NCBI GenBank assembly: GCA_038214535.1
Contig: JBBQRS010000008.1
Location: 1,272 to 65,271, forward strand
Length of the DNA stretch: 64,000 bases
Source: Anaerolineae bacterium
GTDB taxonomy: Bacteria > Chloroflexota > Anaerolineae > CG2-30-64-16
Direction: 5' to 3'
In this document: positions 43,278-55,224 of the stretch, piece after piece
How the letters are laid out: each line of letters starts with the position of its first letter
How positions within the stretch are numbered: the stretch's first letter is position 1
Position numbers and translations under genes: made by a program
The notes under the pieces: generated by a model
What the model was told of the DNA's origin: nothing
The model's input: only the letters and a program-made list of their open reading frames with translations
Database searches by the model: none

Positions 43278-45881
43278 ATGATTCAACTCTCTGATCTGCT
43301 GGCGGCGACGGGCGGGCGGCTGCATGGGCCGGCAGCGGTCACCGCCTTCGATGCCTTCTGCTACGATTCGCGGCTCGTGCAGCCGGGGCAACTTTTCATC
43401 GCCGTGAAGACGGAGCGCGCCGACGGGCACGCATACATCCGCGACGCTGTGGCGGGCGGCGTGACCGGCGTGCTTTGCCAGACACCTATTGACATAAGCG
43501 ACGCGGCAGTGACCTGCGTGGTCGTGCCCGATACGCGGCTGGCGCTTCAGGCGTGGGCGCAGTATGTCCTGGCGCGGCAGGGCGTCGCGGTGATCGGCGT
43601 GACGGGCAGCGTGGGCAAGACCACCACGAAAGAAGCGATCGCCGCGGTGCTGGATGGCGAGATGCCCATCTTCAGGAACCGGGCTAACTACAACGGCCTC
43701 TATGGACTTCCCATCGCGCTAGGCGAACTGCGCCCCGAACAACGATTGGCGGTGCTGGAGCTGGCCGCCGATCACGCGGGCGAGATCGCGCGCCTGTGCG
43801 CAATCACTCGGCCGCGCGTAGGGGTGGTCACTACGGTCGAGCCGGCGCATCTGGCGACGTTCGGCGACCTGGCGGCGATTGCCCGCGAGAAGGGCGAGTT
43901 GGTGGCCGCGCTGCCCGCCAATGGGCTGGCCGTGCTCAACGCCGATGACCCGCGCGTGGCGGCGATGGCGGCGCGTTCGGCTGCGCCCGTGATCCGTTAT
44001 GGCACAGACCGCAACGCAACGGCCGCGTGCTGCGACATCTACGCCTCGGAGATCATCGTCACGCGCGAGGGCGTGCATTTCCACGTCGAGACGCCTGCAG
44101 GCCGAGGCCACGTGCGCCTGCCGCTGTTGGGGCGGCATCAGGTGTATGCGGCGCTGGCCGCGCTGGCCGTTGGGTTGCACCATGGCGTCGCGCTGGATGC
44201 GATCACGGCGCGGTTGGAGGCGCTGCCGCGCTTGCCGGGGCGGTTGAACCCGCTGCCCGGACGCCGCGGCAGCCTGATCCTCGATGATTCCTACAGCGCC
44301 AGCCCCGCCGCAGTGGAAGCCGCGCTGGAGACGCTGGCGGCGTTGGAGGCGCGGCGGCGCGTGGCCGTGCTCGGTGACATGCTGGAGCTGGGCGACTATG
44401 AGGCCGCCGGGCATGAGGTCGTGGGTCAACGCGCCGCGCAGACGGTGGATCGGCTGATCACGCGCGGCAACCGGGCGCGGCAGACGGCGGACGCGGCGCG
44501 GGCCGCGGGGCTGGCCGCAGATCAGGTCGTGGTGACGTATACGGCGGAGGACGCGGCGGAGGCGGCGCTTGAGGGGCTGGGGCCGGGCGACGTGGTGCTG
44601 GTGAAGGGGTCGCTGGCGACGCGCATGGAGCAGGTGACGCGCCTGCTGATGGCCGAACCGGAACAGGCCGCGGATCATCTGGTGCGCCAGGATGCGGCCT
44701 GGCGGCAGACCATCACCGTCAGCCCCGACCGGCCCACCTGGTTGGAGATTGATCTGGGGGCCATCGCCAATAACGTGCGCCGGTTGAAGGCGCTGGCGGG
44801 CGAGGGGGGAATCCTCATCTCGTTGAAGGCGGACGCGTACGGGCATGGCGCGATCCAGGTGGCGCAGACGGCGCTGCTGAACGGCGCGAGCTGGCTGGGC
44901 GTGGCCTGCCTGAGCGAAGGGGCCGCGTTGCGCGACGCGGGGATCGCCGCGCCGATCCTGGTGCTGGGCTACACCCCCGCGTGGCAGGCGCGTGACGTGC
45001 TGCGCCGTGACCTGACGCCCGCGATCTTCGACCTGGACACGGCGACGGCGTACTCGCATGCGGCGCAGGCGCTCGACCGGACGGCGCGCGTTCACGTGAA
45101 GGTGGACACGGGGATGGGCCGGCTGGGGGTGTTCCCCGCAGACGCGCCCGCGTTCGTGGCGGCTGTCCGCGCGCTGCCCGGCGTCGAGGTGGAGGGCATC
45201 TTCACGCATCTCTCAGTGGCCGACGGGGATACGGAGTGGGAGGCAGACCACACCGCGGGCCAACTCGCCGCGTTCGACGGGGTATTGGAGGCTTTAGCGC
45301 GTGATGGTGTCATCATTCCACTTGTACACGCCGAGAATAGCGCCGGTCTCCTCCGCTCCTCTGCCCCTCCGCGCCTCCGTTCCTCCGCGCCTCCGCCCCT
45401 CCGCTCCAACATCCTCTTCCGCACCGGCATCGCGGTCTACGGGCTGCACCCGTCGCTAGGCGTGCAGTTGCCCGCGGGGTTCCGACCCGCGCTGGCATGG
45501 AAGACGCTGATCGCCCAGGTGAAGGAGCATCCGGCGGGCAGCCCCGTGGGCTATGGCGCGACTTATCGCACGGCAGGAGTCGAGCGGATTGCCGTGATCC
45601 CGGTGGGCTACGCGGACGGGTTCCGCCGCGCGCCGCAGAACTGGGGCGAGGTGTTGGTGCGCGGCCGCCGCGCGCCCATCGTGGGCCGCGTCTGCATGGA
45701 TCAGGCGATGATCAACGTGACGGAGATTCCCGGCGTGCAGCAGGGCGATGAGGTGGTGCTGATCGGCGCGCAGGGTGAGGATCGCATCACCGTAGAGGAG
45801 GTCGCCGCGCGGCTGGGGACGATCAACTACGAGGTGGTGTCGGGCATCCTGGCGCGCGTCCCGCGCGAGACGCCGGTGTAG
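43278..45881 (+). CDS. murF-alr: Bifunctional MurF (UDP-MurNAc-tripeptide--D-Ala-D-Ala ligase) / alanine racemase fusion
   Basis: N-terminal Mur ligase with GVTGSVGKTTTKE. C-terminal Alr with PLP-Lys region LKADAYGHGA and ...ENSAG...YGL. Single 867-aa ORF. Confidence 0.88.
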   Translation: MIQLSDLLAATGGRLHGPAAVTAFDAFCYDSRLVQPGQLFIAVKTERADGHAYIRDAVAGGVTGVLCQTPIDISDAAVTCVVVPDTRLALQAWAQYVLARQGVAVIGVTGSVGKTTTKEAIAAVLDGEMPIFRNRANYNGLYGLPIALGELRPEQRLAVLELAADHAGEIARLCAITRPRVGVVTTVEPAHLATFGDLAAIAREKGELVAALPANGLAVLNADDPRVAAMAARSAAPVIRYGTDRNATAACCDIYASEIIVTREGVHFHVETPAGRGHVRLPLLGRHQVYAALAALAVGLHHGVALDAITARLEALPRLPGRLNPLPGRRGSLILDDSYSASPAAVEAALETLAALEARRRVAVLGDMLELGDYEAAGHEVVGQRAAQTVDRLITRGNRARQTADAARAAGLAADQVVVTYTAEDAAEAALEGLGPGDVVLVKGSLATRMEQVTRLLMAEPEQAADHLVRQDAAWRQTITVSPDRPTWLEIDLGAIANNVRRLKALAGEGGILISLKADAYGHGAIQVAQTALLNGASWLGVACLSEGAALRDAGIAAPILVLGYTPAWQARDVLRRDLTPAIFDLDTATAYSHAAQALDRTARVHVKVDTGMGRLGVFPADAPAFVAAVRALPGVEVEGIFTHLSVADGDTEWEADHTAGQLAAFDGVLEALARDGVIIPLVHAENSAGLLRSSAPPRLRSSAPPPLRSNILFRTGIAVYGLHPSLGVQLPAGFRPALAWKTLIAQVKEHPAGSPVGYGATYRTAGVERIAVIPVGYADGFRRAPQNWGEVLVRGRRAPIVGRVCMDQAMINVTEIPGVQQGDEVVLIGAQGEDRITVEEVAARLGTINYEVVSGILARVPRETPV
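45351..45407 (+). repeat. In-frame 24-nt tandem repeat (LRSSAPPR x 2.4) inside the Alr domain
   Basis: ctccgctcctctgcccctccgcgc / ctccgttcctccgcgcctccgccc / ctccgctcc. CTCCGC-rich, like the intergenic GCGGAG word family. Confidence 0.85.
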
Positions 45882-50808: not shown

Positions 50809-51034
50809 GGCGTCCTCCTGCTGAGGTAACAAGCCCATCTCGTCGTTGATGTTGCGCATCAGCTTATCTCTATTTTACTGTAAATCGGGGCGCGTGGATA
50901 GTTATCTCGCCACGGCGCACCGGGGATGCCATCGGGCGAACCGACCGCGGCTCAGGCCGCGACTGAAGCGCCGGTCGCCGTGCTGACGGATTACCCTCAG
51001 GGGCAGGCTCTCTCTGGATTTGACCACTAGACAA

Positions 51035-51087
51035 GTAGACAAGGAAACAAGGAGAACGCCAGGAGCTCCTCTTGTTTCCTTGTCTAC
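51035..51087. repeat. Word palindrome (GACAAGGAAAC words)
   Basis: gtagacaaggaaacaaggag pairs with ctcctcttgtttccttgtctac. The right arm contains the DinB stop codon. Confidence 0.85.
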
Positions 51088-51587
51088 CTATTTCCTTGCT
51101 CCTGCACGAAGATAATGAAATCCAGGTTGCCGGGCGACTCGCCGTAGGCCGTGAGCAGGATGGCAGCCTCGGAGCGATGCTGGATGCCGTGCAAGACGAT
51201 GTAGATCAGCGCCTGCCACAATACCTCGTCGCGCCAGGCCCCGCGCGATACCACGTAGCGAAATTTCTCCGCAAGTTGTTCATCTGTGATCCCCGCCAGA
51301 TACTCGCGCATCGCGACTTGCTGGGCATCCCACGCGTCGTTGAGCGCGGCGACCGTAGTGATCCCCTCCAGGTCGGCCAGGTCTGTCAGCTTACCGCCAT
51401 CGCGCGCGCGTTGCAGCCAGACGCGTTCGGCGGCGAGCGAGTGCACGAGGGTTGCCAGCAGGCTGCCGTGCGGCGCGGGGCCGGTTGCAGTCAGTTGCTC
51501 CGGCGTGCAGCGTTCGGCGGCGTCCAGCACGCGGCGGGTGGCCCAGCAGTGATAGTCATAGAGTCGCTGTAACGATGCAACGTCCAT
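51084..51587 (-). CDS. DinB family protein
   Basis: YDYHCWATRRVL...LVHSLAAERVW...HGIQHRSE His-triad pattern. Confidence 0.8.
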   Translation of the reverse strand: MDVASLQRLYDYHCWATRRVLDAAERCTPEQLTATGPAPHGSLLATLVHSLAAERVWLQRARDGGKLTDLADLEGITTVAALNDAWDAQQVAMREYLAGITDEQLAEKFRYVVSRGAWRDEVLWQALIYIVLHGIQHRSEAAILLTAYGESPGNLDFIIFVQEQGNR

Positions 51588-51772
51588 ATACAGCCCTCCT
51601 GTAGAAATTTGATGATCGGCATAGGTTACATGCGCGGCGGGCGGCTGTCAAGATGGCGGATCAAAACACTATCCACCGCGCCGGCGCGCTTGTCGCGTGC
51701 GCCAGCGAGCAGGATGGTTTGCTGCTATAATAGATCTCATAACGTGTGCAATCCGTGAGGAGCGAGAATCGT

Positions 51773-54700
51773 ATGTCCACAACCGAGTATCGAGATACCT
51801 ATCTGGGGGCCGACCTGGGCGTGATTGACCCCGATATTGACGCCATCATCGAACATGAGGCGGAGCGTCAGGCGCGCAAACTGATTATGATCCCCTCCGA
51901 ATCTATCGCGCCGCTGGCGGTGCGGCAGGCGTTGGGCTCCGTCTTCAACAACGTCTACGCGGAGGGCTATCCGCCGCTGCGGATGACGCGGGATGAGGAG
52001 GAGATGCTCCTGGACATCGCCCACCAACTCGTCGCGTATCGGCGCTACGCCGACCGGCGCTTCTACAAGGGCGTGGATTTCGTCAACTTCATCGAGACGC
52101 TGGCGCAACGGCGCGCGGCGGATTGCCTCGCCAACGACCGCGTCGCCTCCCCCGAAATTTACGTCAACGTGCAGCCGCTTTCGGGCGCGGCCGCCAACCT
52201 CGCCGTGTATGACACGCTGCTGGACGTGGGCGACACCGTGATGGGCATGGACCTGTATCAGGGCGGCCACCTGACGCACGGCAGCGAGTTCAACTTTTCC
52301 GGCAAGCGCTATCACGTGGCGAGCTATGGCGTCAGCCGCGAGACGAGCCGGTTGGATTATGACGCGATCCGCGAGCTGGCGCAGCGCGCGCGCCCGAAGA
52401 TGATCATCGCCGGGTTCACCTCATACACCTGGGTCCCCGACTGGGAACTTTTCGCCGAGATCGCGCACGAGGTCGGCGCGAAGCTGCTGGCCGACATCAG
52501 CCACCCCGCGGGGATGGCGATTGCCGGGGCCTACCCCAGCCCGGTGGGCATCGCCGACGTGATCACGTTTACGACACACAAGACGCTGTGCGGGCCGCGC
52601 GGTGCGGTGATCGTCAGTACCGACGAGGAGCTGGCGCATCGGGTTGACATGGCCGTCTTCCCCGGTGAGCAGGGCGGGCCGCACACGCAGAAGTTCGCGG
52701 CAATGGCCGTGGCCTTCAAGATTGCGCAGACGGAGACCTTCCGGCGGATGATGTTTCAGATCGTCGAGAACGCGCGGGCGCTGGCCGATGGTTTGGTGAA
52801 CCGCGGGCTGAAGCTGGCCTATGGCGGCACGGACACGCACTTCTGCGTGCTCGACCTGAACAGCGTAGGCGACCACAAGGGATCGCCGCTACGGGGAGAG
52901 CCTGCCGTGCGTATCCTCGATCTGGCGGGGATCGTGGCGAACAAGAACACCATCCCCGGCGACACGCAAACGGCGCTGGCGATGGGGATCCGGCTGGGGT
53001 CGCCGTGGCTGACGCAGCGCGGCTTCGGGCCGGCGGAGATGGACGCGGTCGCCGGGCTGATCCATCGGGTGGTGACGAACATTCGCCCCTTCTCGTACAC
53101 CGGGCTGTCGGGCGAGTTGCCGCGCGGCAAGATTGACGCGAGCGTGCTGGCCGAGGTGCGTGCATACGTAGACAGGGAAACAGGGAAACAAGGAGACAAG
53201 GAAATGGGGAAACACGGAGACACGGAGGGCACGGCGAAAAGAGAAGAAATATCTTCTCTTGGTGTCCTTGGTGATCTTCGTGTCTTGGTGGTGAAAGGGG
53301 AGCGCGCAGAGCCGGCGCTGAATCAGATCGTGACGTGTGATGTGGCGGCGCTGACGGCGGGGATGCAGGCCCGCGGGTTCATACTCGACCCTGACGGCGT
53401 GATGATGAGCGAGGTGCGCGTGACCCGGCTGGAACCGGACGCTTACGGGCGCGACCGCTTTGTGCTGCGCGTCCCGCCGGAGAACGGTGACCGCGTGGCC
53501 GGGTGGCTGCGTGACCTGGCCGATGGCTACGTGCTGTTCGACCGAGAGGAGTTGCTGCGGAAGGTCGAGGGGCCGTTCACCGTAGAGGAATGGTCTAGGG
53601 AAGAGATCGCGCCGGACATTGCGGCGACGTTACGCGCGGATGTGCGCACGCCGGATGACGTCGCGGCCACGCCGGGCGCGACCGGGTTGGCGTTATATCA
53701 GGGGGGCGCGGCGTCCCGTTTCGAGCTGCGTAAGCCGTACTTCGTCGGTCACCAAACACTGGACGCGGTGCGCGAGCATCCTGAGTTGCCTGTCTTTTTC
53801 TATGAATCGCCAGCCGACGCGCCTCTGCGTCGCACGCCGCTTTACGACTGGCACCGGGCGCACACCAGTCACATTGTCCCATTCGCCGGGTGGGAGATGC
53901 CCGTATGGTACACGGGCGTGCTGGACGAGCACAATGCCGTGCGCAAGGCGGCTGGGCTGTTCGACGTGGCGCACATGGGCGTCTTCGAGTGCCGCGGCCC
54001 GCACGCCGTTGAGTTCCTCGATCTGGTCTGCACGAACTACGTGCGCTGGTATGCCCCCGGCGAGAGTTTTTACTCCTACCTGTTGGACGCCGACGGCAAG
54101 GTGATTGACGATCTGCTGGTCTATCGCCGGGCGGCGGATCGGTTCCTGATTGTGGTGAACGCCGCCAACGCCGAGAAGGACTGGGCGTGGCTGAACGCCG
54201 TCAACGCGGGGCGTGTGCTGCTCGACCCGGCGCGGCCCGATCTGCGCGTGTTGCGGCCCGCCGAGTTGCGCGATCTCAAGGGTCCCGCCGCAGGGTCGGA
54301 GATGCGCGTGGACCTGGCGCTGCAAGGCCCCGCCGCGCTGCGCACGCTCCAGGCGCTCACGGACGACCCGCGCCTGCGCGACCGCCTCGCGCGCGTCCGC
54401 AAGACAGGGCTGATCGAATGCGACCTGGGCAGCTTCGATCTGGTGATCGCCCGCACCGGCTACACCGGCGAAGACGTGGGGTATGAGATTTTCGTCCATC
54501 CCGACCGCGCGGTCGCGCTGTGGGAGGCGCTGTTGGAGGCCGGGCAGCCGTTCGGCGTGCAACCTGCCGGGCTGGCCGCGCGCGACAGCACGCGCACCGA
54601 GGCGGGGTTGCCGCTCTACGGGCACGAGCTGGCCGGGCCGTTCGACATTTCGCCCGCGGGCGCGCGCTTTGCGGGCTACGTCAAGCTGCACAAGCCTTAT

Positions 54701-55102
54701 TTCATCGGGCGACCTGCGTATCTGGCGGCGGAGCAAGCGCGCACGATGGAGGTCGCGCGGTTCCGCATGAAGGCGCGCGGCGTGCGGATGCCCAAGACGG
54801 GCGATCCGGTGGTGAATGCGCGCGGACAGGCGGTCGGCTGGGTGACGAGCGCCGCGGTGGACGTGAACGGCGTGATCCTGGGGCTGGCCTACGTGCAGAG
54901 CCGCTATGCGCGGCCCGGCGATGAGATCGGCGTGTTCAACCTGCCCGCGAAGCCGCTGACCGAGAAGGGTAACAAGGCCGAGTTGGAGCCCGGCGACAAG
55001 GTCGCGCTGGCCGATTGGGCCGTGTTGCTGCCGCGTTTCCCGGATGCGGTCGAGCGCGCGGGGTGGCGGGATAGCGGATGGCGGATGGCTGATAGCATAT
55101 AG
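51773..55102 (+). CDS. glyA: Serine hydroxymethyltransferase fused in frame to a GcvT-like aminomethyltransferase (1109 aa)
   Basis: GAGGAG RBS and ATG 51773. SHMT blocks (PSESIAP, YAEGYP, TTHKTLCGPRG) up to about 53160. Repeat-derived linker. GcvT blocks (TPLYDWH...FAGWEMPVWY, LFDVAHMG) up to the stop at 55102. No stop codon in between. Confidence 0.75.
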   Translation: MSTTEYRDTYLGADLGVIDPDIDAIIEHEAERQARKLIMIPSESIAPLAVRQALGSVFNNVYAEGYPPLRMTRDEEEMLLDIAHQLVAYRRYADRRFYKGVDFVNFIETLAQRRAADCLANDRVASPEIYVNVQPLSGAAANLAVYDTLLDVGDTVMGMDLYQGGHLTHGSEFNFSGKRYHVASYGVSRETSRLDYDAIRELAQRARPKMIIAGFTSYTWVPDWELFAEIAHEVGAKLLADISHPAGMAIAGAYPSPVGIADVITFTTHKTLCGPRGAVIVSTDEELAHRVDMAVFPGEQGGPHTQKFAAMAVAFKIAQTETFRRMMFQIVENARALADGLVNRGLKLAYGGTDTHFCVLDLNSVGDHKGSPLRGEPAVRILDLAGIVANKNTIPGDTQTALAMGIRLGSPWLTQRGFGPAEMDAVAGLIHRVVTNIRPFSYTGLSGELPRGKIDASVLAEVRAYVDRETGKQGDKEMGKHGDTEGTAKREEISSLGVLGDLRVLVVKGERAEPALNQIVTCDVAALTAGMQARGFILDPDGVMMSEVRVTRLEPDAYGRDRFVLRVPPENGDRVAGWLRDLADGYVLFDREELLRKVEGPFTVEEWSREEIAPDIAATLRADVRTPDDVAATPGATGLALYQGGAASRFELRKPYFVGHQTLDAVREHPELPVFFYESPADAPLRRTPLYDWHRAHTSHIVPFAGWEMPVWYTGVLDEHNAVRKAAGLFDVAHMGVFECRGPHAVEFLDLVCTNYVRWYAPGESFYSYLLDADGKVIDDLLVYRRAADRFLIVVNAANAEKDWAWLNAVNAGRVLLDPARPDLRVLRPAELRDLKGPAAGSEMRVDLALQGPAALRTLQALTDDPRLRDRLARVRKTGLIECDLGSFDLVIARTGYTGEDVGYEIFVHPDRAVALWEALLEAGQPFGVQPAGLAARDSTRTEAGLPLYGHELAGPFDISPAGARFAGYVKLHKPYFIGRPAYLAAEQARTMEVARFRMKARGVRMPKTGDPVVNARGQAVGWVTSAAVDVNGVILGLAYVQSRYARPGDEIGVFNLPAKPLTEKGNKAELEPGDKVALADWAVLLPRFPDAVERAGWRDSGWRMADSI
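53168..53300. repeat. Word-repeat element translated as the SHMT-GcvT linker
   Basis: gtagacagggaaacagggaaacaaggagacaaggaa... plus an inner palindrome aagagaag/cttctctt (53239-53260) and ggtgtccttggtgatcttcgtgtcttggtg. Internal AAGGAG-8 nt-ATG at 53204. Confidence 0.8.
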
Positions 55103-55138: not shown

Positions 55139-55224
55139 AGGGGCGTTTGGAACACGAAGACCGCGAAACGGCGCGAAGGGCGCGAAACGCGAAGGGCGCG
55201 AAGGGGAAGACCGACGATTGCTTA

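Follow-up and report, generated by a model that had tools for sequence, protein, structure and literature searches.

The window analysed here is a stretch of 64,000 nucleotides from an Anaerolineae bacterium (assembly GCA_038214535.1, contig JBBQRS010000008.1, positions 1,272 to 65,271), and it carries a gene in which two folate-dependent enzymes are encoded as one protein. The gene (window positions 51773..55102, plus strand, as are all of its parts described below) is a single stop-free open reading frame (ORF) that starts at an ATG at 51773 (1109 aa) or a GTG at 51746 (1118 aa) and ends with the stop codon at 55100-55102. The ORF listing, Pfam and NCBIfam resolve it into serine hydroxymethyltransferase (SHMT), a duplicated GcvT folate-binding domain that is truncated and degenerate (GcvT') and a complete GcvT aminomethyltransferase. 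The stretch that links SHMT to GcvT' (53168..53296, codons 466-508) is a dispersed octamer-word hairpin element that is read in frame. An initial sequence-only reading of the locus had described two complete enzymes in one stop-free frame, an extra module of ∼110 aa between them, and a junction made of translated intergenic-type repeat; all three observations are borne out by the analyses below.

The SHMT domain (residues 1-465; 51773..53167) was placed with PF00464 and by alignment to the B. stearothermophilus enzyme 1kkj. The Pfam match covers residues 92-430 (E 3.6e-113; 378.6 bits against a cut-off of 27), and the NCBIfam model NF000586 gives 408.2 bits, above its curated cut-off of 335. 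The lysine that forms the Schiff base with pyridoxal phosphate (PLP) is present, TTHKTLCGPRG aligning with TTHKTLRGPRG of 1kkj, and the active-site motifs SE, YAEGYP, GGHLTHGS, D..H and GIR.G match as well. The window protein shares the fold-type-I PLP domain of stand-alone GlyA (1kkj; 1dfo from E. coli), with the TTHKT lysine, GGHLTHGS, D..H and the carboxylate-binding arginine all aligned. It differs from stand-alone GlyA by a ∼26-aa family-specific insert at residues 69-94 (51977-52054), between AEGYPP and RRFYKG; by Leu136 (52178-52180), which turns the QPHSG of stand-alone SHMTs into QPLSG and is invariant across the fusion family; and by ∼640 further C-terminal residues that hold GcvT' and GcvT.

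The complete GcvT domain occupies 53816..54940 and comprises GCV_T (53840-54637) and the GCV_T_C barrel (54761-54934), as judged from Pfam, NCBIfam and structure alignment. GCV_T (PF01571) matches residues 690-955 at E 1.1e-83, and GCV_T_C (PF08669) matches residues 997-1054 weakly, at 22.9 bits, under the cut-off of 25.9. The gcvT equivalog TIGR00528 scores 273.2 bits, over its cut-off of 235.85, and PRK00389 falls marginally short (299.5 against 300). In structure-sequence alignments this part matches solved T-proteins from end to end, catalytic motifs included. Like stand-alone GcvT (1yx2 from B. subtilis, 1woo from T. maritima), it is full length, passes TIGR00528 and has GcvH and GcvP partners in the genome. 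Unlike stand-alone GcvT, it lies outside a gcvT-H-P operon, is fused C-terminally to SHMT and to its own degenerate duplicate, and carries an insert of ∼27 aa and, at its C-terminus, a tail of ∼50 aa. Among solved structures, a database search matched the fusion protein to none that extends beyond a stand-alone SHMT.

Between the two enzymes lies GcvT' (∼110 aa; 53279..53632). The module matches positions 49-127 of the Pfam GCV_T profile (E 4.5e-8), and hhalign aligned a profile of this module from 70 long-form relatives with the profile of their C-terminal GcvT at 99.8% probability (E 7.9e-28, 239 columns). These profile comparisons indicate that the extra module derives from GcvT, and that the family is built as SHMT-GcvT'-GcvT, with the folate domain of GcvT present twice, the first time in degenerate form. 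The window copy is a remnant in which the first strand region (...AELAAARxGAALLDVSxCG) is gone; residues 503-607 nonetheless fold confidently in AlphaFold2 (pLDDT 85-93, 75-sequence alignment). A second variable linker, defined by family alignments (53633..53815), holds the conserved RFELRKPYFVG that ends the duplicate. Measured against a same-genus relative (genome G001), dN/dS comes to 0.115 in SHMT, 0.06-0.07 in GcvT and 0.375 in GcvT'. Purifying selection is strong on SHMT and GcvT alike and relaxed on the middle module.

The junction element (the DRETGKQGDKEMGKHGDTEGTAKREEISSLGVLGDLRVLVVKG region) was delimited by GC content at third codon positions (GC3), 8-nt periodicity, inverted arms and fold z-score. 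It spans 129 nt, or 43 codons, contains no stop, keeps the frame and is translated as DRETGKQGDKEMGKHGDTEGTAKREEISSLGVLGDL. Repeat finding, Tandem Repeats Finder (TRF) and a word search place an array of 8-nt words at 53162-53225 and a purine-rich arm at 53170..53233, made of the tandem octamers AGACAGGG, AAACAGGG, AAACAAGG, AGACAAGG, AAATGGGG, AAACACGG and AGACACGG. A perfect 9-nt palindrome, AAGAGAAGA-aata-TCTTCTCTT, forms the hairpin tip (53239..53260; repeat finding, RNA fold). Then comes a pyrimidine-rich arm (53257..53290) whose complementarity to the octamers is imperfect (75-79% in inverted pairs I1 and I2; RNA fold). The RNA folds at -43 kcal/mol, with z = -5.05. Composition sets the element apart from the gene that contains it: GC is 0.49 against ∼0.67 in the flanks, and in-frame GC3 over 53168-53296 is 0.44 against 0.84-0.92 in all other parts of the gene. 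AlphaFold2 gives pLDDT below 50 to the repeat-coded residues 479-500 and models the flanking domains confidently, so that the repeat peptide is predicted to be a low-complexity, largely disordered spacer. Repeat finding showed no flanking direct duplication. The arms of the element are inverted word arrays, and no terminal inverted repeats were seen. A terminator and promoter scan returned nothing at the junction.

The words of this element recur well beyond the gene. Within the window, GACAGGGAAAC occurs seven times with at most one mismatch, against 0.72 expected. Across the genome, TRF reported 591 period-8 and 984 period-9 arrays; 261 arrays are strongly purine- or pyrimidine-biased and 45 form hairpins of a purine arm and a pyrimidine arm. 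A strict definition of the word family, three or more consecutive RRAYRVGR units, yields 25 sites in the genome and one in the reversed-genome control, and the junction copy is the longest. When the coding context of each copy was assessed with 90-nt padding, the junction was the only one of the 25 to be flanked by coding-type sequence and crossed by an open frame; the other 24 lie outside coding frames. The junction element is therefore an intergenic-type repeat located within a gene.

The fusion itself is common. Searched with residues 380-760, the protein database gave over 2400 matches. Almost all are 1100-1230 aa long with both PF00464 and PF01571, and the named matches were labelled Anaerolineae or Chloroflexi. 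The fused gene is present in all 31 genomes of the class that were searched, most of which carry two paralog types, 70-90% and ∼48% identical to the query; some class genomes carry stand-alone SHMT or GcvT genes as well. Among species-representative genomes, at least 540 have a gene for a relative, mainly in the Chloroflexota classes Anaerolineae and Thermoflexia, with further metagenome-assembled genomes (MAGs) labelled Myxococcota, Bipolaricaulota and others. The window protein is 68-80% identical over its full length to 74 aligned members (70-80% to relatives of 1100-1230 aa) and, like the uncharacterised Anaerolineae and Thermoflexia fusions P0002, P0008 and P0015, has the family's domain order, SHMT insert and catalytic motifs. 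Taken together, the sequence comparisons indicate that the fusion family is old and widespread and that the window ORF is an intact, ordinary member of it. Because two fused paralogs (∼48% identical) are kept in nearly every class genome, their duplication would also be old, and their roles possibly different.

Where the window protein departs from its family is the linker. Most fusion relatives carry no repeat of the window type. After SHMT they have a proteinaceous linker (...EVAALAAxGAAETxxRGxGYPH...) and then the conserved middle module, and the YPH motif is found in 104 of 106 full-length relatives. In the window protein YPH is absent, a hairpin element stands in place of the AALAAxGAAET..GYPH linker, and GcvT' has fewer residues than its counterparts in the closest relatives. 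P0002, the nearest relative of full length (80% identity), keeps the GYPH linker in a single ORF. So does the second fused paralog of the window's own genome, a 1115-aa frame on contig C66 with 49% identity, a GYPH-containing linker and no repeat.

Only G001 shares the window's element family at this site. Its ortholog (G001:C28:92990-97453) has, at the corresponding position, an octamer element homologous to that of the window, with a left arm ∼85% alike and 38 extra nt upstream, and likewise lacks YPH. Since the element is common to both genomes, the event that placed it there is older than the split between the two species (dS about 0.35-0.56). The deposited G001 sequence reads as separate ORFs across the element. 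It is also broken twice more in conserved GcvT segments and again in the neighbouring DinB-like gene, and the assembly is 63% complete. As these further breaks fall in strongly conserved segments (dN/dS 0.06-0.12) and in the neighbouring gene, they are probably indel errors of that assembly. G001 was considered as evidence for two separate genes and rejected for this reason, the segments concerned having dN/dS of 0.06-0.07. More generally, the G001 assembly is probably indel-prone, and its gene calls need care.

In other genera the same site is occupied by different words. Directly after GYPH[FY], hairpins of (RAGGYT)n, read as EAKVKAEAK...TLTLTSTSTL, are found in G009, G016, G014 and at loci L046 and L040, and ACGAAG-type words stand at the linker site in P0002 and at locus L035. 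Three consecutive RAGGYT units occur at 46-70 sites in G009, G014 and G016, and at none in the window's genome (G000) or in the control. When linker folds were scored as z against a control segment, six of 44 non-redundant linkers fell below -3 and two more reached -2.7 and -2.9, compared with none of the 44 control segments. Sliding-window minimum free energies over 50 homologous genes were uninformative because the coding sequence, being GC-rich, folds no less well than hairpins of lower GC. These comparisons point to the linker as a permissive site, repeatedly occupied in a sub-clade whose genomes carry such elements.

We consider it very likely that the window ORF is a member of an old SHMT-GcvT'-GcvT family whose linker has become repeat-coded, and that the repeat did not create the fusion. 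The fusion is widespread without the repeat and exists without it in the C66 paralog, which argues that the repeat entered a linker that was already there. The motif YPH is almost universal in relatives and missing here, which argues that the element replaced conserved linker and was not merely added to it. In the proposed sequence of events, an octamer hairpin element would have taken the place of the ...AALAAxGAAET..GYPH... linker, together with that of the initial GcvT' strand, in an ancestor of the genus. Lying between domains, it preserves the frame, brings in no stop and is translated as a spacer. The role of the repeat is presumably neutral or tolerated. The one unusual detail here is that an intergenic hairpin repeat, now translated, has overwritten the linker; the family itself is already annotated in databases, where fusions of the P0002, P0008 and P0015 type are named 'glycine cleavage system aminomethyltransferase GcvT' or 'glycine hydroxymethyltransferase'.

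Several points weigh against this account. About 70-90 residues of GcvT' that are kept in the closest relatives, P0002 and G001, are missing from the window protein, and this loss together with that of YPH could reflect relaxed constraint on the window paralog. The deposited G001 ortholog shifts frame within the repeat, and the length difference across the element is not a multiple of three. The contig that supports the window sequence (see below) is probably derived from the same reads as the MAG, and so is not fully independent of it. We take the histidine of QPHSG in the B. stearothermophilus and E. coli enzymes to be the PLP-stacking residue; the fusion family has leucine there throughout, so that canonical SHMT chemistry is an assumption for the window protein. 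Finally, our searches found no activity, transcript or peptide record for the window protein or for any family member.

Among other explanations, the first gives the hairpin a function in RNA or translation, as a co-translational folding pause, an RNase processing site or a site of internal initiation that yields a separate GcvT'-GcvT protein. The stable fold suits such a role, as do the start-like signals within the repeat and the recurrence of hairpins at exactly the same domain boundary in several genera. Even so, only six to eight of the 44 relatives have a hairpin there, and the sequences involved belong to each genome's own dispersed repeat family. As most relatives have no linker hairpin, a selected RNA function is unlikely. 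The start-like signals fare no better. The sequence-only reading had noticed AAGGAG (53190-53195) and, across a spacer of 8 nt, an in-frame ATG at 53204, and had proposed that the second enzyme could be made on its own from there. The signal is indeed present and in frame (53190..53206, inside the repeat), but the proposal built on it is not supported: G001 has AAGAAG and ACA at the corresponding positions, so that the sister species has kept neither the Shine-Dalgarno-like sequence nor the ATG codon, and the RNA fold sequesters the ATG in the base of the -43 kcal/mol hairpin stem. The AAGGAG-ATG pair is probably a by-product of the repeat words.

A related idea is that a hairpin at the SHMT/GcvT' boundary is selected and renewed from whatever words each genome has to hand (octamers here; RAGGYT in G009, G014 and G016; ACGAAG in P0002). 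We regard this as doubtful. If true, it would mean a selected structure at a domain boundary, for example a pause during which SHMT could fold or dimerise ahead of the emergence of the GcvT domains, or a site of processing or initiation through which the two enzymes could be made in unequal amounts. In a milder version, dispersed word-repeat hairpins may evolve in concert across a genome, and an old insertion would then track the current family.

The loss of the YPH motif and part of GcvT' suggests another explanation, in which the window paralog is decaying toward a pseudogene, its functions are covered by the C66 paralog, and indels in the linker and GcvT' are tolerated. The internal deletion in GcvT' relative to G001 and P0002, the dN/dS of the middle module and the broken frame of the G001 ortholog would all fit. 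Decay is nevertheless quite improbable: the 3.3-kb frame is intact with coding-type GC3 everywhere except in the repeat, both catalytic domains retain dN/dS of 0.06-0.12, and both paralog types are kept in nearly all genomes of the class.

The sequence-only reading had also raised the possibility of an assembly indel in the low-complexity repeat that hides a stop or a frameshift between two real proteins. Tandem 8-nt words are prone to mis-assembly, and the length difference in G001, not divisible by three, would fit such an error. Against this stands a Logan contig of run X1, which is probably the source sample, produced with a different assembler (5441 nt, depth 24): over 52900-53700 (801 nt) it is identical to the window, with no differences and no gaps. 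Many unrelated contigs match the repeat arms as well, which fits a dispersed family. In addition, the frame on either side of the junction is the one that the single-ORF relatives predict, and the breaks in G001 extend to conserved GcvT segments and the DinB-like gene, which points to indel errors in that assembly. An artefact in the window is, on this evidence, very improbable.

The suggestion of the sequence-only reading that the stop-free, frame-keeping repeat itself joined neighbouring glyA and gcvT-like genes in this lineage could draw on the intergenic-type, non-coding composition of the junction and on the separate ORFs deposited for G001, but it is scarcely credible when relatives by the hundred (more than 2400 proteins, at least 540 genomes, 31 of 31 class genomes) are fused, mostly without the repeat and across a conserved proteinaceous linker, as are the GYPH-containing P0002 and the C66 paralog.

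The genomic context bears on what the fused protein does. The genome is 99.9% complete, and a profile search found no SHMT in it besides the two fused paralogs. It holds no stand-alone GcvT either; the sole other GCV_T-like gene passes the YgfZ/CAF17 model and scores far under the GcvT cut-offs. A gcvH-gcvPA-gcvPB cluster without gcvT lies at C86:10316-13872. As the genome has no SHMT or T-protein gene besides the two fused paralogs, the window protein most likely carries out both reactions. The first would be the interconversion of serine and tetrahydrofolate (THF) with glycine and methylene-THF. In the second, aminomethyl-H-protein and THF would be interconverted with methylene-THF, ammonia and reduced H-protein, the fusion protein acting with the separately encoded GcvH, GcvPA and GcvPB. 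With both methylene-THF-handling sites on one polypeptide, glycine cleavage or synthesis would be coupled to the interconversion of serine and glycine. In a relative (locus L115, contig_2045:251064-266390) the fused gene is followed by bipA, fpg, gcvPB, gcvPA and gcvH, with three genes from the fused gene to the cluster. The window has fpg ∼5.7 kb downstream of the fused gene, and its gcvH-P cluster is on a different contig. The gene order of L115 and the fpg of the window suggest an ancestral neighbourhood that joined the fusion and the glycine cleavage genes.

Coupled bifunctional folate enzymes are familiar from other pathways. Examples are dihydrofolate reductase-thymidylate synthase (DHFR-TS), formiminotransferase-cyclodeaminase, and the dimethylglycine and sarcosine oxidases with their GcvT-like folate domain. 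As in those enzymes, two folate-dependent steps are joined in the SHMT-GcvT fusion, which suggests a hand-over of THF and methylene-THF. Folate coupling or channelling between the fused sites would be a possible consequence. Unlike those enzymes, the pairing of SHMT with T-protein is one for which a literature search found no description or biochemical characterisation of a natural fusion, common as it is in a large and mostly uncultured class. Likewise, no RNA run holding the locus was found, and the records that contain it are metagenomic DNA contigs. A covalent link between glycine cleavage and SHMT is relevant both to the coupling of glycine, serine and one-carbon flux and to the engineering of the reductive glycine pathway.

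As for the repeat, the closest described phenomenon is the in-frame insertion of Rickettsia palindromic elements (RPEs), which, with other elements of the miniature inverted-repeat transposable element (MITE) and repetitive extragenic palindromic (REP) types, insert in frame into protein genes (PMC10969869). The likeness lies in a dispersed palindromic repeat that sits in an essential metabolic gene, keeps the frame and adds a peptide between structured parts. Unlike RPEs, with their unit of ∼150 bp, the window element consists of tandem 8-nt words and replaced older sequence instead of simply adding to it. Unlike RPE and MITE elements, too, nearly all other copies of its family are intergenic, with one of 25 in a coding frame. 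The locus thus offers a clean case, outside Rickettsia, of a translated intergenic repeat in an essential metabolic gene, where a motif conserved in 98% of relatives was replaced and the gene left unbroken. It also carries a warning for annotation: word repeats can occupy coding linkers and there mimic gene boundaries, Shine-Dalgarno-ATG signals and, in error-prone assemblies, frameshifts.

Other arrays of purine or pyrimidine words in this genome also appear to be read in frame. Examples lie at 45348-45407 of the window and, elsewhere in G000, at C113:7477-7507, C208:1356-1397, C28:10243-10282, C34:7159-7213 and C85:751-794, within frames of 518-1030 aa in which GC3 is of the coding type to either side of the array. 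Insertion of repeats in frame thus seems to recur in the genome. A gcvPB-like frame (L034, G000:C86:12121-13872) holds LSLWERAGVRG and NPLPRGEGTDLFLPFPAGEGRGEG, which look like another dispersed repeat in frame. Close to the fused gene, a GCGAAGG-type array lies ∼50 nt past its stop codon (window 55150-55215), and a GACAAGGA-type hairpin occupies the upstream intergenic gap beside the DinB-like gene (window 51028-51090).

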